Source: an uncultured Gammaproteobacteria bacterium (GTDB lineage Bacteria > Pseudomonadota > Gammaproteobacteria > Pseudomonadales > Pseudohongiellaceae). From it: DNA of 64,000 nt. The stretch lies in assembly GCA_963975155.1 (NCBI GenBank), contig CAXBFG010000002.1, positions 264,181 to 328,180 on the forward strand. Reading direction: 5' to 3'. The position numbers and the translations under genes were made by a program. This document shows positions 8,621 to 29,204 of the stretch, one piece after another. Under the pieces are notes generated by a model. The model made no database searches and was not told the DNA's origin. It saw only the letters and a list, made by a program, of their open reading frames with translations. How positions within the stretch are numbered: the stretch's first letter is position 1; every line of letters begins with the position of its first letter.

Positions 8621-8892
8621 ACTGAACGCGAGAGCCTTATCAGCGAGCTGGATAGTCCTCTGTGGCTCGACCCCTAAGCAACTGGACGCGAAAAAAGGAG
8701 TTATTTACCTAAAGAATGGTTTGGTGCCCAGGAGAGGGTGAAGTCTGCCGTTTATGAAGCGCAGCTTCATGGCAGACTGAACGCGAGCGCCTTATCAGCG
8801 AGCTGGATAGTCCTCTGTGGCTCGACCCCTAAGCAACTGGACGCGTAAAAAAGAGTTATTTACCTAAAGAATGGTTTGGTGCCCAGGAGAGG
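8621..8892. repeat. Tandem duplication (period 155 bp) of the tRNA-Leu 3' end plus ~100 nt of downstream flank
   Basis: 8621-8737 and 8776-8892 are near-identical. Each copy ends in TGGTGCCCAGGAGAGG, the reverse complement of the last 16 nt of the tRNA. A 38-nt hairpin-forming spacer lies at 8738-8775. Confidence 0.9.
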
Positions 8893-8963
8893 ACTTGAAC
8901 CTCCACGACCTTTCGATCACTAGCACCTGAAGCTAGCGTGTCTACCAATTCCACCACCTGGGC
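8877..8963 (-). tRNA. tRNA-Leu (anticodon CAG)
   Basis: The reverse complement folds as a cloverleaf. Acceptor stem is GCCCAGG/CCTGGGC. Anticodon arm is CTAGC-TTCAGGT-GCTAG. There is a long variable arm, a T arm GGAGGTTCAAGTCCTCT, and an encoded CCA. Confidence 0.93.
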
Positions 8964-12292: not shown

Positions 12293-12560
12293 AAAGCAGC
12301 TTGTTATCTTGCTCAATTACGGGCTTGTAAACTCCGCCGATAACAAGCTGCTTTGCCTCGATCTTTCTTCGCTCATAACGCGGCCTGAGTTGGAGTTCAG
12401 ACTTACTCTTAGCCTCGTGAGCCCATTGAATTGCTTTCTCCCTTGGCTTAAGTTCGGATTCAAGCGAGGACTGTCTGAGTCGCGAAGCGGCGAGTTCCGC
12501 AGCGCCGAACTTAAGTGAAGGGAAGAATGAAGGGTGAACCGAAGCAAGAGCTGGGCTTCA
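12293..12560 (+). repeat. Copy A of a structured intergenic element family (3' domain conserved, 5' domain reduced)
   Basis: The core CAAGCGAGGACTGTCTGAGTCGCGAAGCGGCGAGTTCCGCAGCGCCG (12461-12507) is shared with 15476-15524 and with 26914-26960 on the other strand. Nested stems include 12447-12457/12505-12515 (11 bp, perfect). Confidence 0.8.
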
Positions 12561-12714
12561 ATACCTATATTGTTCAAATAGATTTGCATCTGGCCCCCAA
12601 CCTCTCTACAATTCGCCCTCTTTTTAACTCCTTGTCTTACCGCAGAAGCTTAAAGATAGCTGAAGGCTCCACAATGAGCCCTGCTGGAAGACTGCCAATC
12701 CGTAAGGAGAAGTA

Positions 12715-14904: not shown

Positions 14905-15206
14905 TACCAAAAAGGGAGCCAAAAGCTCCCTTTTTTTTTGTCTTTTGAATACCAGATAGTGAGATTTAATTATTTTTTTATGTGCTGAAAATACCAGACC
15001 GGGAGCCCTTAGCTCCCCTTTTTTTTTGTCTTTCGAATACCAGATAGTGAGATTTAATTGTTTTTTATGTGCTGAAAATACCAGACCGGGAGCCCTTAGC
15101 TCCCTTTTTTTTTGTCTTTCGAATACCAGATAGTGAGATTTAATTATTTTTTTATGTGCTGACAATACCAGACCGGGAGCCCTTAGCTCCTTTTTTTGTC
15201 TTGAAA
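14905..15206 (+). repeat. 87-bp tandem array (about 3.4 units), each unit ending in a terminator-like hairpin plus T-run
   Basis: Hairpins GGGAGCC(AAA/CTT)AGCTCC(C) start at 14914, 15001, 15088 and 15175, an exact 87-nt period. The inter-hairpin sequence is also repeated. Confidence 0.9.
14914..14939 (+). terminator. Rho-independent terminator of the rpsF-rplI operon (first of four repeated hairpins)
   Basis: GGGAGCCAAAAGCTCCC followed by 9 T, 24 nt after the rplI stop codon. Confidence 0.85.
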
Positions 15207-15634
15207 TTCTCAAAAACGGGTAGTGCATCCGTTTGAAATTTTACTGTTTATTCTCAGTCTTAATGATGAGCTATCCTTTTGACGACACGCCAAAAAGCGT
15301 ACATCCTTGTACAGGCTCGGCTGACGACATCCCTGTCGTCAGACGGTCGCCAACCTGATAGCTCATCATTAAGACTGTGCATTAAACATCCTTTAAAAGT
15401 CGACAATGCTAGGAAAGCCGCCCTTCCTGCCATGTGAACCCATTGAGATGTAGTTTTCCTGAGTGTTTTTCCGATCAAGCGCGAGGACTGTCTGAGTCGC
15501 AAAGCGACGAGTTCCGCAGCGCCGGAAAAACAGGAAGGAAAGATCGAAGGGTGAACATGGCAGAAGCGGCGGCTTCTACAACGTCAGCCTTTTCAAACTG
15601 ACGCACTACCCAAAAACGGGAACCACTAGTCGTA
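15207..15634 (+). repeat. Copy B (full length) of the structured intergenic element family; candidate ncRNA or non-autonomous mobile element
   Basis: Perfect 21-bp stem 15255-15275/15357-15377. Conserved core at 15476-15524. 21-nt inverted repeats at 15218-15238/15591-15611. Flanking 15-nt direct duplication at 15192-15206/15635-15649. Confidence 0.8.
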
Positions 15635-19292: not shown

Positions 19293-19501
19293 GCCCTTGC
19301 TTCCCTAACTGATTTCAATGACTGACTGAGCCAAAGCTCATGGCTCCACTCTATCTCAGTTGCCGGGAAAAGGGCCGTACTTAACCGTTGTTGAACTGTT
19401 TAAGGACGTTAATGCATTGTTAAAAAGCCTTGTCAGGCCTTTGGATAGCCGGGTCTGGTGCTGCTGATCTGGGTGAGGTGCCAGAAATGCTTGCCTGCGC
19501 T

Positions 19502-20905
19502 TTACTTGATCATTAAATCTTCGCCGGATTGCCTGCGTTGCTGCTGCAATTCTTGTTGCTGTCGCCTTTCTTCTTCATGGCTGTTTTCACCGCCAACCCA
19601 TTTGTCCATGACAACACAGGCAACCATGTCCCCGGCAACATTCACCGAGGTTCGACACATATCCAGAATCCGGTCTACACCCATCAGCAAGGCAATGCCC
19701 GAAGCCGGAATGCCCACCGTGCTCAACACCATCGACAAAATGACTATGCCCACACCCGGAGTGGCCGGTGAGCCAATTGATGCACCTACGGCAACTACCA
19801 CCAGCAAAGCCAGGGAGCCGGTACTGAGGTCTATACCATAAACCTGCGCCAAGAATATCGTTGCTACCCCCTGATACAGCGCGGTGCCATTCATATTGAT
19901 GGTGGCACCGATCGGGATCACAAATTCGGCAATGGATGGTCTGACATTCAGTTTATCTTCAGCGGTTTTGATGGATAAGGGCATAACTGCCGCTGAACTT
20001 GACGTGGAAAAGGCCAGCAAGAGTAATTCCTTTAATTTACTGAGAAAAGTCAAAGGTGATTTTTTGGTGACAATCAAAATCAGCAGCAGATAGAGCATCA
20101 GCATAATCAGTAAGCCGAGCAACACCGTCATGACATAGATACTCATGCCGAGCAGGGCTTCGAAACCGATTCTGCTGACTAGCTGTGCCATCAGACCAAA
20201 TACGGCAATGGGGGCCAATAACATGGCGCCTTTAACCACCGTCATGCAGACTTCCTGCAAGGCGCCCAGAAAATCAAACAGTGGTTTAGTCCTTTCGACA
20301 GGTGTTAATAAAAGGGCAAAACCAAAAATAACCGAAAAAATGACCACTTCAAGCATCTGGTTCTCGACCATTGAATTCAATGGGTTGGTCGGAAACAGAT
20401 TAATCAGTGTTTGCGGCAATGTTGATAAATCAGGTAGCGCTGCTGCAGCCTCGTCGCCAACCTGACTGACCTGCTGCACATCAGAGAACAGAGAAGCTTC
20501 TATATAATTTCCCGGCTCAATAAACAGAGCCAGATTGATCCCGATGATAATGGCAATCGTGGTGGTGATAATAAAAAAAGCCACCACCGAAAGGCCCAGC
20601 TTTTTTAACTGATTAATATCATCCGTAGATGCCAGTCCGCGTATGATTGAGGCAAACACCAGCGGCACAACAATCATTTGTACCAGGATCAGGAACAGCT
20701 GCCCCGGTAAAGCCAGCCAGTTAGCGATCAGTTCTGAGTTAGCACTTTCAATCAGCCCAAGGGACGGACCCAGAAGAATACCAACCAGGATGCCGCACAA
20801 CATTCCCAGCAGAACCTTGAGCCAGAGTCGACCAGCCACCAATTTGTTGAGGTGGGAACTGAGGTAACTTAACGGTCTTGGATTTAGGGCCTGTAGAGAA
20901 ATCAT
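19502..20905 (-). CDS. Dicarboxylate/amino acid:cation symporter (DAACS, GltP-like)
   Basis: 467 aa with family motifs FSTSSSAAVMPLS, IGATINMNGTALYQ and DRILDMCRTSVNVAGD. It has an unusual charged C-terminal tail (EEERRQQQELQQQRRQ). Confidence 0.9.
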   Translation of the reverse strand: MISLQALNPRPLSYLSSHLNKLVAGRLWLKVLLGMLCGILVGILLGPSLGLIESANSELIANWLALPGQLFLILVQMIVVPLVFASIIRGLASTDDINQLKKLGLSVVAFFIITTTIAIIIGINLALFIEPGNYIEASLFSDVQQVSQVGDEAAAALPDLSTLPQTLINLFPTNPLNSMVENQMLEVVIFSVIFGFALLLTPVERTKPLFDFLGALQEVCMTVVKGAMLLAPIAVFGLMAQLVSRIGFEALLGMSIYVMTVLLGLLIMLMLYLLLILIVTKKSPLTFLSKLKELLLLAFSTSSSAAVMPLSIKTAEDKLNVRPSIAEFVIPIGATINMNGTALYQGVATIFLAQVYGIDLSTGSLALLVVVAVGASIGSPATPGVGIVILSMVLSTVGIPASGIALLMGVDRILDMCRTSVNVAGDMVACVVMDKWVGGENSHEEERRQQQELQQQRRQSGEDLMIK

Positions 20906-21022
20906 AGAGTATCGTGCATTCCCGCAAATGAAATAATTCTGCGAATGTAAAGTTCTGATCAGCTTCGCCTGTGATTAGCGATATAATAACCGATCTCAAC
21001 TTAAAGATATGTTATCTCATCT

Positions 21023-22717
21023 ATGACGGTATTAATCAGCACTTTGCTGGGCGGGCTGGGTCTTTTACTGATCGGTATGACGCTGATGACCGACGGCCTC
21101 AAGCTGGCGGCAGGCAATACCCTCCGGGATATTCTAGCCTTATGGACCAATAGCCGAATCAGAGCATTATGTTCCGGCTTTCTCATTACCGGGATCGTGC
21201 AATCATCCAGTGCCGTCACCGTTGCAACCATTGGCTTTGCCAATGCCGGAATGCTCAGCCTGGAGCGTGCTGTCTGGGTAATTTATGGCAGCAATGTGGG
21301 CACAACCATGACCGCATGGATCGTGGCCCTGATCGGCTTCAATGTAAACATAGAAGCGTTCGCACTCCCCCTGATTGGTCTGGGTGCCCTGCTGAAGTTA
21401 ACCGGTGCACAGTCAAAACGAGCCTCGCTGGGCATGTCCCTGGTCGGTTTTGGTTTATTGTTTCTGGGCATCAGTGTTCTTAAATCAACATTCGCCAGCA
21501 TTGGTAATGACTTTAGTTTTCCGGCTTTTGAACAGGTAAGCCTGTTAAGTGTCTGCCTTTATGTGCTGCTTGGATTCATACTGACGAGCATCATGCAATC
21601 TTCAAGTGCCGCAATGGTTATCGCACTGAGTGCCGCTGAAGGAGGCTTGATACAACTGGATGCTGCTGCAGCTGTCGTCATCGGCGCCAACCTCGGCACA
21701 ACAACGACTGCCTTAATTGCTGTTTTCGGGGCAACCTCTCTGGCTAAACGGGTTGCGGTAAGCCATGTGCTGTTCAATGTAGTGACTGCCCTGGTTGCCA
21801 TCATTCTGTTGACGCCCATGTTATGGATGGTCGCACTGCTCGAGAACCTGTTTAATCTAAACGCTTCCCCAGCCATGAGCCTTGCTGTTTTTCACTCCAT
21901 CTTCAATGTAGTCGGGGTCTTGTTAATGTGGCCCATTTCAAACAGCATGGTCGCTTTTTTAGCCCGGCGATTTACAACAACAGAAGAAAAGGAATCACAG
22001 CCTCAGCATCTGGACAAGAATGTCATGGCCCTGCCTTATATTGCCATTGACTCCATAGGCCTGGAACTTAAGCGTATTTCAGGACTGACTTTTAGTTACA
22101 TGCTGGCCTGTTTCGATGCCAGCAAAGAAATTACCACCCCATTTATCATACGCAACCTTGCTAAAGCTGTTGGTTCTTATGCTGCTGAATTAAACAGAAC
22201 TTCACTTACACCCTTTCTCGCCGAAGCCATTACCAGCCTCATTGAATCGTTACAGGAATTTATGTTTGTGCTGGAGCTCAGTACAGAAATATCCGCTTTA
22301 CAGGACATACACTTGATGTCACACAATACCGAGCTGGAATCCGAGGTAAGCAAATTTACCAGGAGTGTGCAGAACTACCTGAATTTATTAGCCAACATTT
22401 CTCTGCTGGAAATAGATAGCGAAAAAAGCAACTACATGCAAATTGAGGCAAACTACAGTCAGTTCAAGAAAGTCATTATGCAGCAGGCCTCCTACGGTAA
22501 TGTGCAAATCGATGAAATGGACAAGCTCCTGCAATATGCCAATGCTGCCAAACGTGCCAGCAGACATTTGTGGAAAGCCCAGCGACGTTTACTATCTGTG
22601 CAGGAATCCCTGCGACGTAATGCCGCCGGAGAAGTGACGCCTTCTTCCCTGCCGGAAAATTCTACCCTGAGTTTGCTGCAGGAAAACAACGCCATACTGG
22701 AAGAAAAAATCAGCTAA
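21023..22717 (+). CDS. Na/Pi cotransporter family protein with PhoU-like C-terminal domain
   Basis: 564 aa with duplicated Na_Pi_cotrans motifs (GIVQSSSAVTVATIGFANAG and SIMQSSSAAMVIALSAAEGG). A helical cytoplasmic C-terminus follows. Confidence 0.85.
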   Translation: MTVLISTLLGGLGLLLIGMTLMTDGLKLAAGNTLRDILALWTNSRIRALCSGFLITGIVQSSSAVTVATIGFANAGMLSLERAVWVIYGSNVGTTMTAWIVALIGFNVNIEAFALPLIGLGALLKLTGAQSKRASLGMSLVGFGLLFLGISVLKSTFASIGNDFSFPAFEQVSLLSVCLYVLLGFILTSIMQSSSAAMVIALSAAEGGLIQLDAAAAVVIGANLGTTTTALIAVFGATSLAKRVAVSHVLFNVVTALVAIILLTPMLWMVALLENLFNLNASPAMSLAVFHSIFNVVGVLLMWPISNSMVAFLARRFTTTEEKESQPQHLDKNVMALPYIAIDSIGLELKRISGLTFSYMLACFDASKEITTPFIIRNLAKAVGSYAAELNRTSLTPFLAEAITSLIESLQEFMFVLELSTEISALQDIHLMSHNTELESEVSKFTRSVQNYLNLLANISLLEIDSEKSNYMQIEANYSQFKKVIMQQASYGNVQIDEMDKLLQYANAAKRASRHLWKAQRRLLSVQESLRRNAAGEVTPSSLPENSTLSLLQENNAILEEKIS

Positions 22718-22873
22718 GGTCTGTTTTGGCTGCTGAAGACATATTTTCTTGCTGAAAAATTTTTTTTGAGCTGCAACTTGGAGCCGCATTGGGTAAGATT
22801 GTTAGCCTGCCTTTTGTAAAAGGCAAAGCATATTTTTCACCTACATAAGCCAACATAGACAGATTAAAGAGCA

Positions 22874-24340: not shown

Positions 24341-25461
24341 TCCACCGGGTCAGAGCCAGCATCAAGCTCAGCGCCTTGACCAATAACCTGCGGGTCGCGC
24401 GTTCGCATGCCAGGAATCGCAAAATCATGGCCGTCATCAAGGCTAATGCCTATGGGCATGGCCTGCTGTCTGTGGCCGAAGCCCTGCAGAGTGCTGATGC
24501 TTATGCGGTCACCGATGTTGATGAAGCCGATCTGCTGTCAGCGGCAGGCACAGATAAACCCATCGTTATCTTGCAAGGCATTATCGAGCGCAGTGATATT
24601 GCCCGCATCGCCATAGCCGGTTACCAGCTTGTCATACATTCCGTGGAACAACTTGGCTGGCTCGAACAAGAACTAAGTAAGCTTAACAAGCCCCAGGCCC
24701 TGACTCTGTGGCTAAAAGTGAATACCGGTATGAGCAGATTAGGACTCATGCCGGATGAATGCCTCAATGCCAGGCAGTTCTTACAGGCCAAGCCCTGGTG
24801 TCAGGAAATCGTTCTGATGACACATCTGGCCAATGCCAACCTGCTGGATTCGAATCTTAATCAACACCAAGTTGATGCCTTTGTCGCTGCCAGCATGCAG
24901 ATGCCTGATCTTGCAAAGAGTATCGCCGCCTCTTCCGGCTTGCTGGCCGGTTTTGGTGCAGATACAGACTGGGTCAGACCCGGCATCATGCTCTATGGCA
25001 GTTCACCCTTTCCCTACTCCGATGAAAAACTCCGCCGCGAGTCTTTTGGTTTACAGGCTGTGATGACACTGCAATCGAAAATTATTGCCATCCAGAATTG
25101 CCAGGCCGGAGACAGTGTTGGTTATTGTTCGCAATTTATCTGCCCGCAGGCTATGCGCATCGGCATTGTCTGCATAGGTTACGCCGATGGTTACCCGAGT
25201 AATGCACCCAATGGCACTCCGGTGCTGATAAATGGCAAACGCTGTCACACTGTTGGCCGGGTTTCCATGGATATGATCGCAGTCGATTTATCGGCCGTCC
25301 CGGAAGCCAGCATAGACACAATCGTGACCTTGTGGGGTGATGAGCTGTCTGTGGATGAAATTGCCGAACATACCGGGATACTCTCCTATAATTTATGCTG
25401 CAGTGTTGCTGCGCGCGTTGAGCGAGTAACAGACAGTCAAAATGAGAGCTCCCGTGGCTAA
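24337..25461 (+). CDS. alr: Alanine racemase
   Basis: PLP-Lys motif AVIKANAYGHG about 35 aa from the GTG start, which overlaps the dnaB stop (GTGA). The C-terminal domain has VSMDMIAVDL. Confidence 0.93.
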   Translation: MIHRVRASIKLSALTNNLRVARSHARNRKIMAVIKANAYGHGLLSVAEALQSADAYAVTDVDEADLLSAAGTDKPIVILQGIIERSDIARIAIAGYQLVIHSVEQLGWLEQELSKLNKPQALTLWLKVNTGMSRLGLMPDECLNARQFLQAKPWCQEIVLMTHLANANLLDSNLNQHQVDAFVAASMQMPDLAKSIAASSGLLAGFGADTDWVRPGIMLYGSSPFPYSDEKLRRESFGLQAVMTLQSKIIAIQNCQAGDSVGYCSQFICPQAMRIGIVCIGYADGYPSNAPNGTPVLINGKRCHTVGRVSMDMIAVDLSAVPEASIDTIVTLWGDELSVDEIAEHTGILSYNLCCSVAARVERVTDSQNESSRG

Positions 25462-26824
25462 ACAGAAATCAGCCTATGTCTGCACAGATTGCGGAACTGA
25501 ACACGGTCAATGGCAGGGCCAGTGCGCGAGTTGTGGCGCATGGAATACCTTATCAAAAATAATGCTTGGTGCTGCCAGCGCCCCATCAGCCAGTGCCAAC
25601 TTCAAGCGCCAGGGTTTCACCGGCTCCAGCTCCACTGTAAAAACCCTCAATGACATTAATCTCGATGAAACCCCACGCATCGCCACCGGAATTGGTGAAT
25701 TCGACAGGGTGCTGGGTGAAGGTATTGTACCGGGCTCAGCGGTACTGATCGGCGGCAATCCCGGGGCCGGCAAAAGCACCCTGCTGTTGCAGATATTCTG
25801 CAAGTTGTCGCAGGACGTAAAGGCACTGTATGTCACCGGCGAAGAATCTTTGCAGCAGGTTGCCATGCGTGCCAAACGCCTCGGCCTGCCTACCGATAAA
25901 TTATTGATGCTGGCTGAAACCAACATTAACGCCATAACCGATGTTGCCCAGGAACATCAGCCCAAGCTAATCGTTATTGACTCCATTCAGGTGATGCACA
26001 GTGCCGAAATTGCTTCGGCGCCGGGCTCCGTTAGTCAGGTCCGGGAGTGTGCGGCTTACCTGGTGCAGTACGCCAAACAAACCAATACCGCCATCTTTCT
26101 GGTGGGCCATGTCACCAAAGACGGCAATCTGGCCGGGCCCAAAGTACTGGAACACATGATTGACTGCTTCATGATGCTGGAGGGTGGCGATGATTCTCGC
26201 TATCGCACTTTACGTGGCCAGAAGAATCGCTTTGGCGCCGTCAACGAACTGGGTGTTTTTGCCATGACGGAACTCGGCCTTAAGGAAGTAAAAAACCCTT
26301 CGGCTATTTTCCTGGCACGCACCGAAGATCTTTCTCCGGGTTCACTGGTGACCGTACTCTGGGAGGGTACCCGACCTTTACTGGTAGAAATTCAGGCCCT
26401 GGTAGACAGCTCACAGTTGGGTAATCCACGCCGTATTGCCGTGGGCCTGGATCACAATCGTATGGCCATGTTACTGGCAGTGTTACATCGGCACGGCGGT
26501 TTGTTTATGGCCGACCAGGATGTCTTTGTGAATGTCGTTGGCGGTGTTCGGGTGACTGAAACCAGCGCCGACCTGGCATTGATTCTGGCTGTTGTTTCCA
26601 GCTTTAAGGACAAGACCCTTGATCAGGAACTGGTGGTCTTTGGTGAAGTCGGTCTGGCCGGTGAAATCCGCCCGGTCCCGAATGGACAGCAACGCCTGCA
26701 GGAGGCTGCCAAACATGGTTTTACCCGTGCCATCGTGCCCAAGGCCAATGCGCCCAAACAGCCCATCAAAGGCATGCAGGTGATTGCCGTATCACGCCTA
26801 AGTGAAGCGATCGACGCGCTGTAG
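25442..26824 (+). CDS. radA: DNA repair protein RadA (Sms)
   Basis: Zn-finger YVCTDCG...CASCGAWNT, Walker A GGNPGAGKSTLLLQ, KNRFG motif and a Lon-like C-terminal domain. The true start may be the GTG at 25454 (MAKQK...). Confidence 0.95.
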   Translation: MRAPVAKQKSAYVCTDCGTEHGQWQGQCASCGAWNTLSKIMLGAASAPSASANFKRQGFTGSSSTVKTLNDINLDETPRIATGIGEFDRVLGEGIVPGSAVLIGGNPGAGKSTLLLQIFCKLSQDVKALYVTGEESLQQVAMRAKRLGLPTDKLLMLAETNINAITDVAQEHQPKLIVIDSIQVMHSAEIASAPGSVSQVRECAAYLVQYAKQTNTAIFLVGHVTKDGNLAGPKVLEHMIDCFMMLEGGDDSRYRTLRGQKNRFGAVNELGVFAMTELGLKEVKNPSAIFLARTEDLSPGSLVTVLWEGTRPLLVEIQALVDSSQLGNPRRIAVGLDHNRMAMLLAVLHRHGGLFMADQDVFVNVVGGVRVTETSADLALILAVVSSFKDKTLDQELVVFGEVGLAGEIRPVPNGQQRLQEAAKHGFTRAIVPKANAPKQPIKGMQVIAVSRLSEAIDAL

Positions 26825-26847
26825 AGAGCCTAGCCAAAAATTATTCC

Positions 26848-27208
26848 AAACTTAACTCTAGATCCGCCACACTCTTGCCCTTGCTCACCCTTCAATCTTC
26901 CCTTTGCTTTAGTCGGCGCTGCGGAACTCGTCGCTTTGCGACTCAGACAGTCCTCGCTTGATCCCGACGAAAGCAAAGTGAAAAAACATTTCAATGGGTT
27001 CACAAGGGTAAGAGTTGTGCCGTCTCAACAATTCATGTGATATCTGTAAAGTTTATGGCACAGACTATGCGCTCTTAGTCTTTGCGTGACCGTCTGGCGA
27101 CAGGACGTCGCCAGCCGAGCCTGCACAAGGACGTGCGTTTTTTGGCGTGTCACAAAAAGACTAAGAGCGCATAGTCTGAATGCAATCGAAAGATTTTTAG
27201 ACTAAGTT
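26848..27208 (-). repeat. Copy C (full length, opposite strand) of the structured intergenic element family; candidate ncRNA
   Basis: Its reverse complement aligns with copy B. Domain 1 stem is 27061-27083/27156-27178 (23 bp, perfect). Core is 26914-26960. Outer stem is 26848-26862/27196-27208. The stems differ in sequence from B but remain complementary. Confidence 0.8.
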
Positions 27209-27287
27209 ATGACTGTTAATAAATATTGCATTTCTTCGGCAGAATGCTATTGTGCGCCACCTTTTTTACGAGACGAGCATTTAAAGA

Positions 27288-29204
27288 ATGCCTGATCCAG
27301 AAACTGACACCAAAAGTAAAACACCCGCGCCAGCAAAATTTGGCACTGTACTAGGCTATGCGCCCGGCAATGTCGCAGTTTACTCATCCGATTATGACAG
27401 CGCAGATGAAAATGAATTACCCAATCGACACGCCTACCGCAGTTATGTTGATGACGTATTTATGGGCTATAAATGGCAATGTGTTGAATTTGCGCGGCGC
27501 TGGATGTATCTCAATAAAGGCTATATTTTTGATGATGTCTCCATGGCCTATGATATTTTCCTGCTCAGTCACGTACGGGATGTCATCGCCAAAAAACCCA
27601 GGCGTCTGCCACTGAAATCTTTTAAAAACGGCTCTCGACGTCATCCCGAACCCGGCTGCCTGCTGATCTGGGACGAAGGCGGAGAATTTGAAGTCACCGG
27701 TCATGTTGCCATCGTGACTGAAGTATTTGCCGATAAGATTCGTCTGGTTGAACAGAACAATCATCATCATGTCTGGCCCGAAAGCCAGAATTATTCACGG
27801 GAATTAAAAGCCCGGATTGCCGAAGATGGTGCCTACTGGGTTGAATCCTCTTTTGCCGATGCGCCGCTGCTGGGCTGGGTTATCCAGACCAGTGACGGCA
27901 CAGATGCGGTGGTACATGACACTGCCAGGAAATCCATGTTCCTTATCAAGATGCAGGCCGCAGAGCTGCAGGTAAATCCTGCGCAATCCTGGCTCAACAT
28001 TGCCAATGAGGACGAAGCTACTTTCGTAAAAATGATGGGTGGGCATCGACTCACCGCTAACCCTGATAACTATGATAAATATCTGATTATCAGCGAGACA
28101 GCAGCCAAGCAATTAAAGCGCGCTACTAACGAGCTGCATGCTCTGTTTCTGCACGCCACAGACTATGTACTGCAACACGAAGAAATTCTGGAAAAATTTA
28201 ATCTCCCCAGAGTTCTGTGGAAGCGTATTCAACAATCCTGGGATAACCGTCGCAATGAAATGATCACCGGGCGCTTCGATTTTTGTATGCAGGAACAGGG
28301 ACTCAAGGTTTATGAATATAACTGCGATTCAGCTTCCTGTTACATGGAATGCGGCAAGATTCAGGACAAATGGGCTGAGCATTTTGATGTCACAGAAGGA
28401 CGCAGTGCCGGCAATAAATTACATAAGGAACTGGTAGAAGCCTGGCGTAACAGCTCGGTGAAAGGCGTGCTGCATATCTTGCAGGATAAAGACCTCGAAG
28501 AAACCTATCACGCACTCTTTATGAAAGAAGCCATCGAACAGGCAGGCATTCCCTGCAAGGTACTGAAAGATTTCGATACCTTAACGTGGAATGCAGAAGG
28601 ACAGATTATTGATGATGAAGGCGTAGAAGTTCGCTGGGTCTGGAAAACCTGGGCCTGGGAAACGGCACTCGATCAACTTCGTGAAGAATGTGAACAGGAT
28701 GATGCCCGTCTTTCAGCTTATGAATTCGATCAGGTCAGAGAAGGCAGCCCGAGACTTGTCGATGTGCTGTTGCGTAGTGAAGTAGTGGTTTTCGAACCCT
28801 TGTGGACGCTTATTCCAAGCAATAAAGCCATTATGGCCGTGCTCTGGATGTTGTTCCCGGAACATCCGTTCCTGCTCAATACCCAATTCAGCCTTACCGA
28901 CGAACTGAAAACCAAGGGTTTTGCCGAAAAGCCCATCGCCGGACGCTGCGGACACAATATCAGCCTGATAGACCAGGACAAGGTCCTGGAAAGCACCGGT
29001 GGCAGGTTTGAACATCAGGACCTGATCTATCAGGAGCTGTTTATGCTGCCTCGCATTGACGACCTGAATATGCAGCTTTGCTGTTTTACCGTGGAAGGAT
29101 CTTATGCCGGAACCTGTATGCGAACAGATACGACTGCACTTATTACCAAGGATAGTGACTTACTCCCCATGCGCATCGTTGAGGATGATGATTTTCAGTC
29201 CTGA
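27288..29204 (+). CDS. gss: Bifunctional glutathionylspermidine amidase/synthetase
   Basis: 638 aa. The N-terminal CHAP amidase has the catalytic Cys context GYKWQCVEFARRW and GHVAIVTEV. The C-terminal part is a glutathionylspermidine synthase pre-ATP-grasp region. Confidence 0.85.
   Translation: MPDPETDTKSKTPAPAKFGTVLGYAPGNVAVYSSDYDSADENELPNRHAYRSYVDDVFMGYKWQCVEFARRWMYLNKGYIFDDVSMAYDIFLLSHVRDVIAKKPRRLPLKSFKNGSRRHPEPGCLLIWDEGGEFEVTGHVAIVTEVFADKIRLVEQNNHHHVWPESQNYSRELKARIAEDGAYWVESSFADAPLLGWVIQTSDGTDAVVHDTARKSMFLIKMQAAELQVNPAQSWLNIANEDEATFVKMMGGHRLTANPDNYDKYLIISETAAKQLKRATNELHALFLHATDYVLQHEEILEKFNLPRVLWKRIQQSWDNRRNEMITGRFDFCMQEQGLKVYEYNCDSASCYMECGKIQDKWAEHFDVTEGRSAGNKLHKELVEAWRNSSVKGVLHILQDKDLEETYHALFMKEAIEQAGIPCKVLKDFDTLTWNAEGQIIDDEGVEVRWVWKTWAWETALDQLREECEQDDARLSAYEFDQVREGSPRLVDVLLRSEVVVFEPLWTLIPSNKAIMAVLWMLFPEHPFLLNTQFSLTDELKTKGFAEKPIAGRCGHNISLIDQDKVLESTGGRFEHQDLIYQELFMLPRIDDLNMQLCCFTVEGSYAGTCMRTDTTALITKDSDLLPMRIVEDDDFQS

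Follow-up and report, generated by a model that had tools for sequence, protein, structure and literature searches.

The stretch of DNA analysed here, which we call the window, is 64,000 nucleotides long and comes from an uncultured gammaproteobacterium of the Pseudohongiellaceae (contig CAXBFG010000002.1, positions 264,181 to 328,180 of the forward strand). Between two of its + strand genes, radA and gss, both identified by Pfam, a repeat that we call copy C lies on the − strand, as the sequence-only reading of this DNA had stated; two related copies, A and B, lie on the + strand. Copy C is, in the best-supported reading, a diverged copy of a composite, non-autonomous and non-coding mobile repeat of about 390 bp, with two hairpin domains, the second of which has at its tip a 44-nt core that recurs across bacterial phyla. 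In the junction alignment the inserted DNA starts directly after the radA stop codon. The genes, the three copies and the parts of copy C are listed below in window positions.

25442–26824, + strand: radA, left neighbour of copy C (Pfam); stop codon at 26822–26824
27288–29204, + strand: gss (CHAP + GSP_synth; glutathionylspermidine synthase), right neighbour of copy C (Pfam)
About 26838–27222, − strand: copy C, whole, comprising leader, domain 1, linker, domain 2 and tail (end-to-end alignment with copy B; fold z = −10.5); 26848–27208 in the sequence-only reading
27198–27208, − strand: 5′ arm of the copy C terminal repeat, AACTTAGTCTA, in the outermost helix of the minimum free energy (MFE) fold
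26849–26860, − strand: 3′ arm of the copy C terminal repeat, TAGAGTTAAGTT, partner of 27198–27208 in the MFE fold
27061–27178, − strand: copy C domain 1 (closing stem and conserved branched interior)
27156–27178 / 27061–27083, − strand: domain 1 closing stem, 23 bp, perfect
27094–27114, − strand: domain 1 inner hairpin (helix string quoted in the sequence-only reading; MFE fold)
27123–27136, − strand: domain 1 small hairpin (quoted helix string; MFE fold)
27015–27060, − strand: linker between the domains, 54% identical to copy B
26872–27014, − strand: copy C domain 2, a long hairpin (fold and covariation)
27004–27014 / 26872–26882, − strand: domain 2 P0, outermost helix (fold)
26996–27003 / 26883–26890, − strand: tandem G·A segment GTGAACCC / GGGTGAGC, inside P0 (fold)
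Between the tandem G·A segment and P1, − strand: conserved loop strands of domain 2, ATTGAAATG / GATTGAAGGG (fold)
26964–26978 / 26902–26916, − strand: domain 2 P1, which encloses the core
26916–26959, − strand: 44-nt core, AAGC-GA-GGA-CUGUCUGA-G[UCGC AAA GCGA]C-GAGU-UCC-GCA-GCGC (covariance model, 65.1 bits, E 8e-16)
15219–15610, + strand: copy B, full length, about 390 bp (terminal inverted repeats, fold, covariance-model match)
15255–15275 / 15357–15377, + strand: copy B domain 1 stem
15479–15522, + strand: copy B core (covariance-model match)
12406–12550, + strand: copy A, domain 2 only, between rlmB and rpsF; core at 12462–12505
27122–27143, + strand: terminator-like hairpin followed by T6 (consensus scan), the complement of the small hairpin of domain 1 and of its A-run

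The three copies are clearly related. The reverse complement of 26800–27290 matches copy B at 15276–15560 with 73% identity over 294 nt (E 2e-35) and copy A at 12405–12550 with 83% over 146 nt (E 2e-36; BLASTN within the window), and segment alignment carries the match with B from end to end, as had been claimed. A 17-mer of the conserved loop, GTGAACCCATTGAAATG, occurs exactly three times in the window with up to three mismatches, a count equalled by none of 100 shuffles, and the covariance model of the core likewise gives exactly three matches (12462–12505 +, 15479–15522 + and 26916–26959 −). MFE folds reproduce the helices noted previously, with z = −10.5 for both B and C and a weaker −3.8 for A, and every helix string that had been quoted is found at its expected place in A, B and C. 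The terminal inverted repeat of copy C is its own and imperfect (11/12 bp). No Pfam family matches the open reading frames (ORFs) that overlap copies A and B or the spurious ones across the repeats, and an Rfam 15 scan of the whole window returns a tRNA as its sole match, with no credible sub-threshold match at copy C.

Between B and C, identity varies strongly by segment: it is complete in the core, 84% in the interior of domain 1, 66–74% in the arms of domain 2, 57% in the closing stems, each of which is still fully complementary, 54% in the linker and 36–56% at the ends. These values bear out the statement that the stems differ in sequence yet stay paired while the unpaired segments are conserved. 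They also rule out a recent duplication with random drift, since outside the conserved islands B and C are about 50% diverged and the stems are nonetheless perfect.

Covariation was assessed on an alignment of 11 copies of domain 2, the three from the window and eight from relatives and Tara scaffolds. A scan of Tara/JGI metagenomes gave eight loci with window-type copies (L131–L138), and the orthologous regions of relatives are L128–L130; proteins of the window match Tara and ENA marine assemblies. Of 55 RNAalifold pairs, 26 are changed on both sides, none of 500 shuffles reaches this alignment in any measure, and slid controls give at most 14 pairs with two-sided changes, from which the covariation of domain 2 is statistically supported. 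The test that had been posed, covariation in an alignment with more copies, thus comes out in its favour, both for the 11 window-type copies and for the 114 cross-phylum cores described below. The compensatory changes show that one given strand has a single-stranded fold which the family conserves along with specific bases in the loops; covariation cannot separate an RNA fold from a fold of single-stranded DNA, or from arm-to-arm correction within a palindrome.

The conserved tandem G·A strands GTGAACCC/GGGTGAAC had been said to vary only by G:U wobbles, which holds inside the window and fails outside it: in L135 the motif is replaced by the fully Watson–Crick GCTCACCC/GGGTGAGC, in L138 it contains a G·G mismatch, and L128 lacks it. 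Nothing indicates that this helix is a kink-turn (K-turn) or loop-E-like protein site on a transcribed RNA, as had been proposed.

The tip of domain 2 is far more constant. It consists of the 44-nt core, GCGA-GGA-CUGUCUGA-[hairpin]-GAGU-UCC-GCAGC, and a scan of one genome per species with the pattern GGACTGTCTGAG-N(9–17)-GAGTTCCGC, for which we calculate about two chance matches, finds it at no fewer than 118 genome loci. Among the matches listed, the carriers by record title are Betaproteobacteria (Gallionellaceae, Sulfuricella, Rhodocyclaceae, Methylophilaceae), Gammaproteobacteria, Coriobacteriia, Lachnospiraceae, Clostridia, Phascolarctobacterium, Saccharibacteria and other members of the candidate phyla radiation (CPR), Spirochaetes, Myxococcota, Thermodesulfobacteriota and Planctomycetota, with single contigs labelled Hyphomicrobiales and Akkermansia. 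The core is in all cases closed by a stem of variable sequence, and the small hairpin inside the core shows compensated variation. The 44-position covariance model gives 144 copies in 100 loci among the matches listed; invariance at the 21 searched bases is partly by construction, and the divergent copies recovered by the model show which positions vary.

Within 114 distinct cores, 10 of the 13 pairs are changed on both sides (209 cells; reached by none of 500 shuffles). Pair 8:81 is GC in 109 of them and CG in five, and these five sequences, in which G8 becomes C and at the same time C81 becomes G, rule out our first core model, a GGAC/GUUC helix with a conserved G·U; the inner helix is consequently GGA/UCC, with no conserved wobble. 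Beyond it lies an asymmetric 8 × 4 loop (CUGUCUGA / GAGU), with a tandem G·A stacked on the small hairpin (P3). The 8 × 4 loop, the bulged A and the tandem G·A are nearly invariant in the 114 cores, from many phyla. About 59% of the hairpin tips are C-GNA-G triloops; the GNA triloop, as d(GCGNAGC), is an exceptionally stable DNA mini-hairpin.

At gathering and E-value thresholds Rfam 15 gives nothing relevant at copy C, in eight loci from other phyla or in a Dechloromonas doublet, and neither the strings of core, flank and hairpin nor the concepts gave anything relevant in a full-text literature search; the core family is apparently uncatalogued. Likenesses seen by eye to 5S rRNA (GAGUAG..GGGAAC, CCGAACUC), the P/Q/R/S elements of group I introns, the hammerhead core, group II domain V, type I-E CRISPR repeats and the sarcin–ricin loop were all dropped, there being no Rfam match and only short matches.

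Outside the lineage of the window the modules stand mostly in head-to-head pairs, a minus copy to the left of a plus copy. Each domain-2-type module is 110–150 nt long, with variable, covarying stems and the almost invariant asymmetric 44-nt tip, and the pairs sit in palindromic units of 430–615 bp with flanking hairpins such as AAGAAAGTAGCCAAAGAAA; Saccharibacteria have a similar arrangement of pairs, and in L060 a similar flanking hairpin. Domain 1 occupies the place of the left module in such a doublet and, by eye and position, resembles a degenerate antisense core (AGGCTCGG-hairpin-TCAGACGGTCGCC as against GCGGAACTCG-hairpin-CTCAGACAGTCCTCGCC), although the core covariance model does not detect domain 1 on either strand. 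Copy A and the copies at L132, L134 and L138 are without all or part of it. Upstream of copy A, where B and C carry domain 1, there is a perfect 16-bp hairpin, AAAGCAGCTTGTTATC ... GATAACAAGCTGCTTT, at 12293–12354, which is degraded in L128 (five mismatches).

Some module pairs, 0.9–3.6 kb apart, enclose unrelated accessory genes (McrBC, RelA_SpoT-like, KilA-N, DUF4357, Mrr_N, an IS4/5-type transposase and proteins without a family match). The gene-holding centres, from Gallionellaceae, Sulfuricella and related carriers, include L024 1836–5366, L028 1680–2983, L078 793–2160, L042 5886–7042, L091 6654–7559, L015 1853–3528, L019 3088–4302, L055 1663–2756 and L016 4037–4910. L018, which is compact, and L024, with the McrBC centre, align on both flanks and appear orthologous on that basis. 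Elements persist at orthologous loci across species, with compensatory changes and with decay of one module: in L081 (reverse strand), compared with its orthologue L039, only the right module is still whole, the left one having lost its core, and a partial tandem duplication lies at the left end. At the doublets of the betaproteobacterial type no target-site duplication was seen, and their ends are poorly defined. The 115 flanking ORFs show neither an enriched Pfam family nor a signal of a transposase, reverse transcriptase or integrase, and the neighbours are unrelated housekeeping genes; we accordingly dropped the idea of a cis-element of one gene family or of an element with its own enzyme.

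In the lineage of the window the module travels in a second, outer layer. Full-length copies aligned with their flanks share the ends GGTAGTG(NN)TCAGTTTGAAATTT ... AAATTTCAAACTGA(NN)CACTACC, and the B-type element has a 23-bp terminal inverted repeat (TIR), GGTAGTGNNTCAGTTTGAAATTT, also present in the copies of L131, L133 and L137. Around copy B the TIRs are directly flanked by a target-site duplication (TSD):

15211–15218, + strand: left TSD of copy B, 8 bp, CAAAAACG (read from the sequence)
15219–15241, + strand: left TIR of copy B (TIR match)
15588–15610, + strand: right TIR of copy B (TIR match)
15611–15618, + strand: right TSD of copy B, 8 bp, CAAAAACG (read from the sequence)

Other window-type copies likewise have TSDs of 8 bp, TGGAAGTG at L133 and CGAAACAT at L131. 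At L132 (9742–9870) there is a miniature inverted-repeat transposable element (MITE) of 125 bp, with the ends of copy B, a different and simple hairpin as its interior and an 8-bp TSD, ATTTATTC; in this lineage, therefore, the cargo moved by these ends is of more than one kind. The 20-nt end GGTAGTGNNTCAGTTTGAAA occurs in more than 120 IMG/VR loci among the matches listed, in GC-rich and AT-rich DNA alike, and of 15 inverted TIR pairs 0.4–4.8 kb apart in that set, the 8-bp flanks are identical in 10. Three of these pairs (L187, L242 and L250) have, next to the TIR, an ORF of about 300 aa, a transposase. The ORF of L250 scores 31.0 bits with Pfam DDE_Tnp_IS1 (cut-off 24.1), those of L187 and L242 falling below the cut-off; the best NCBIfam family is transpos_IS1, also sub-cut-off (68.9 as against 100 bits), and close relatives of the ORF, to which JGI and NCBI give the name “IS1 family transposase”, carry PF03400. 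At 10 of 11 positions the outer 11 nt, GGTAGTGACTC, agree with the terminus of E. coli IS1A, GGTAATGACTC. IS1 itself makes target-site duplications of 8–9 bp.

The window-type element is thus an IS1-family MITE in copy B and the Tara copies: non-coding, with TIRs, an 8-bp TSD, insertion polymorphism and ends in common with a transposase-encoding element. For copy C we infer the same membership from its end-to-end homology with B. No IS1 transposase was found by tblastn in the window or the Tara loci, so that mobilisation would be in trans. The IMG/VR units bounded by the 20-nt end (set L140–L259; for example L187 1262–6058, L191 3757–7594, L242 928–3866 and L250 129–2979) hold an IS1-family transposase and/or passengers, namely type I restriction–modification, an AbiEii-like ATPase, NYN and a GNAT-type toxin. 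In L131 and L133 the loop of the domain 1 inner hairpin has an extra insertion of about 50 nt (TGACCGCCAAGGATGGCGGGAATG...GCAGGAGCAAATTTCTGCC), some 250 nt upstream of the cores, which resembles a nested small palindromic insert. Another short repeat, a hairpin with the loop TTCGCTCGC...GCTCCTCA (e.g., GTAGTTCGCTCGCTTACGCTCCTCACCTAC), lies 3′ of the L133 and L135 copies and inside the L132 MITE, and may be a separate family in this lineage, similar to repetitive extragenic palindromes (REPs).

Comparison with relatives shows the polymorphism directly. Where RadA is at least 90% identical, B, C and gss are absent from the corresponding intergenic regions: 3′ of rplI the spacer is 810 bp in the window as against 106–137 bp in relatives without copy B, and radA is followed within 13–170 bp by a DnaT-like gene, with neither C nor gss between. 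On the far side of gss no second copy of the repeat was found. The locus of copy A behaves differently, the rlmB–rpsF spacer being occupied in all three species compared. At L128 (968–1134, corresponding to window 12396–12562) the core is intact and the inner stem is copy-B-like, TTTTTCCTGG/CTGGAAAAA, and at L130 the core is decayed, with many substitutions. The copy A loci are otherwise 80–90% identical between species, for which reason the stem swap at L128 is not a matter of point substitution alone.

We believe, at what amounts to an even balance of confidence, that the constrained structure acts at the level of DNA or of the mobile element. The outer layer would be the MITE shell with its 23-bp TIRs and 8-bp TSDs, present in copy B and the Tara copies and presumed for C, and an IS1-family DDE transposase acting on the same ends would move it in trans; the inner layer would be a cargo of two hairpin domains, domain 2 being a member of the cross-phylum family of modules. 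The fold would then be the recognition structure of the repeat itself, a hairpin of single-stranded DNA or a cruciform arm that is the target of a protein of recombination, transposition or replication, and not a free-standing regulatory RNA; copies read through from a neighbouring gene would give an incidental 3′-end hairpin. The GNA tips, the mixed orientation, the lack of a promoter-like site, the inverted pairs and the position of the module inside a transposon are hints of DNA or of a mobile element. In the arms of 132 copies purine–purine mismatches number 107 and pyrimidine–pyrimidine mismatches 37, an imbalance which means that one strand is the folded one.

Several observations weigh against this assignment. 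In the same arms G·T mismatches outnumber A·C by 51 to 28, which fits RNA at least as well as DNA, although this excess decides nothing, since no mismatch is tolerated better in DNA than G·T. Asymmetric loops rich in purines and tandem G·A are, moreover, also typical of protein-binding RNAs. Copy C has no B-type TIR within three mismatches and no visible TSD, so it may no longer be mobile, and its place among the MITEs depends on its end-to-end homology with B. The TIRs are the least conserved part between B and C, as the segment identities show, and the better conservation of the core implies that the constraint on the cargo is independent of IS1-type mobility. The occupation of the copy A locus in all three species would fit a host function, and no enzyme was found for the family of modules and doublets.

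A live rival is a functional structured RNA, as the sequence-only reading had it: domain 2 at least, or the whole element, would be a widespread protein-binding motif with a K-turn-like asymmetric loop and tandem G·A pairs, spread by mobile elements and acting from its own transcript or in cis within an mRNA, by 3′-end protection, processing or termination. This explanation we regard as rather unlikely, and it nevertheless has much that speaks for it: the strong covariation, with stems that vary around conserved asymmetric loops, a core kept from Proteobacteria to CPR, Coriobacteriia and Firmicutes and unchanged in C while the transposon ends have decayed, the invariant tandem G·A beside P3, the excess of G·U and the purine-rich mismatches on one strand, and the retention of copy A between rlmB and rpsF; head-to-head pairs, furthermore, would give one sense copy per transcript in either direction. 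Against these, a consensus scan of B and C finds neither a sigma-70-like promoter nor a terminator on the element's own strand, and the window-type copies lie in mixed orientation to the flanking genes (6 sense, 3 antisense, 1 ambiguous), with no link to a gene family; the orientation census is usable for these AT-richer copies and too noisy in GC-rich loci, where 62 of 139 elements fall inside spurious ORF calls. The tips are GNA triloops and not tetraloops, the usual RNA tetraloops being GNRA or UNCG. In-situ decay of the core is seen in L130, at the copy A locus, and in the left module of L081, the tandem G·A helix first singled out gives way to Watson–Crick pairs in L135, and the loop has 5–6 bulged bases in place of the three of a canonical K-turn. 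Together with the transposon ends and TSDs and the presence/absence polymorphism, these points remove the support for the free-standing transcribed RNA of the sequence-only reading. What stands of its claim that the structure is under selection is that the fold of one strand is constrained and the covariation real; compensatory changes within a palindromic mobile element are no evidence for a regulatory RNA.

That the repeat has no function at all, its arms kept complementary by arm-to-arm conversion in extruded hairpins and its loops conserved through shared ancestry, seems to us very improbable. L135 pairs two loops that are non-Watson–Crick elsewhere (GCTCACCC/GGGTGAGC and TTCCTGCCTG/CAGGCAGGAA), with both arms changed as homogenisation would give, the decay in place at L130 and L081 is what such junk would show, and the copy-B-like stem at the copy A locus of L128 suggests replacement or conversion over point substitution. 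Conversion would, however, erase asymmetric loops, and the near-invariant 8 × 4 loop, bulged A and tandem G·A of the 114 cores are just such features; a core identical in B and C amid some 50% divergence elsewhere, and a strand asymmetry of mismatches unexpected from symmetric conversion, speak against it too. Equally slim, in our estimate, is the chance of a host chromosomal DNA site in the manner of REPs and bacterial interspersed mosaic elements (BIMEs), bound by a nucleoid, topoisomerase, replication-restart or recombination protein, with pairing providing orientation independence. Such a site would suit the intergenic placement (5 elements between divergent and 23 between convergent genes, in the same noisy census), the doublet architecture across phyla with its GNA mini-hairpins, and the persistence at apparently orthologous loci over species-level divergence. 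Copy number is, however, modest and patchy (the eight window-type copies of the Tara/JGI scan), there is no match in E. coli genomes or plasmids, and the in-situ decay counts here as well. We know of no universal DNA-binding protein that recognises the core sequence.

Copy C itself is ordinary, a decayed copy of a small mobile repeat. Of the core we propose, tentatively and as a possibility we ourselves would doubt, that it is an uncatalogued cross-phylum structured module, either a new protein-binding RNA motif or the recognition hairpin of a mobility or recombination system based on single-stranded DNA, which builds palindromic doublets with centres that capture accessory and defence genes (McrBC, RelA_SpoT-like, KilA-N, Mrr_N); copy C would be one lineage-specific case, taken up by an IS1-family MITE. 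Provided that the family has a protein partner or an enzyme, it would amount to a new widespread RNA motif or to an undescribed way of moving and capturing genes. Cultured carriers are Thauera propionica KNDSS-Mac4, Dechloromonas hankyongensis XY25, Litorivivens lipolytica CECT 8654 and Maricurvus nonylphenolicus KU41E.

Among known systems, IS1-derived MITEs and mobile insertion cassettes are the closest to the outer layer, being short and non-coding, with a 23-bp TIR, an 8-bp TSD, polymorphic insertion and ends in common with transposase or passenger genes; the difference lies in the cargo, which here comprises two hairpin domains better conserved than the ends and is not the remnant of a deleted transposase. 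The inner layer resembles REPs, BIMEs and REP doublets (REPINs) in its intergenic imperfect hairpins, its inverted pairs in either orientation, the lack of a visible end duplication at the betaproteobacterial doublets and the uptake of insertions at the doublet centres, BIMEs taking up insertions of IS1397/ISKpn1. It differs in the size of the modules (110–150 nt as against about 35 nt), in lacking a 5′ GTAG and in a core that crosses phyla, REPs being lineage-specific. No REP-associated tyrosine (RAYT/Y1) transposase is among the most frequent Pfam families of the 115 flanking ORFs.

Enterobacterial repetitive intergenic consensus (ERIC) sequences, or intergenic repeat units (IRUs), are imperfect palindromes of 127 bp and share with the present repeat a long intergenic palindrome that occurs in both orientations and varies in size through internal insertions. 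An arrangement like that of GTGAACCC/GGGTGAGC, G-C, U·G, G·A, A·G, A-U, could also form at the ERIC centre, GTGAATCCCC...GGGGTGAGCG. ERIC has no known TIR or TSD, however, and is not cross-phylum, and a relationship was rejected, a blastn search of 5,426 complete E. coli genomes having given no match to domain 2. On plasmids the window-type element has no match, and the betaproteobacterial type only fragments.

Integron attC sites come closer in shape, with a conserved hairpin, extrahelical bases and a variable stem; they act as folded single-stranded DNA and belong to cassettes of accessory genes. They form direct arrays beside an integrase, in contrast to the inverted pairs of the modules, around which no integrase family shows enrichment. 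Finally, in the core as in the K-turn a helix is followed by an asymmetric loop and then by a tandem G·A/A·G, the latter stacking on another helix (P3), and in the core its G and A positions do not vary. The core differs in its bulge of 5–6 nt as against three, in an extra base on the opposite strand and in a G-C pair at 3b:3n, a comparison made on the sequence, and the same tandem G·A can also form in DNA.

Some further features of the window deserve mention. The terminator-like hairpin at 27122–27143 lies on the strand of the radA and gss mRNAs and, judged from its consensus, may end the radA transcript. Between rplI and copy B, at 14924–15197, there is an 87-bp tandem repeat (3.2 copies, 95% matches), each unit of which contains a terminator-like hairpin (GGGAGCCCTTAGCTCCC and a T-run); relatives have a single terminator there. 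A tRNA gene with a long variable arm lies at 8880–8963 on the − strand. The gene order rnr-rlmB-rpsF-rpsR-x-rplI ... dnaB-alr-radA is one we take to resemble that of Pseudomonas. Within it, about 3.6 kb between a TonB-dependent receptor gene and dnaB (19293–22873) hold a sodium:dicarboxylate symporter and a Na/Pi cotransporter, and the same gap is only about 280 bp in relatives (L128 7161–7439), a second insertion/deletion difference in the window.

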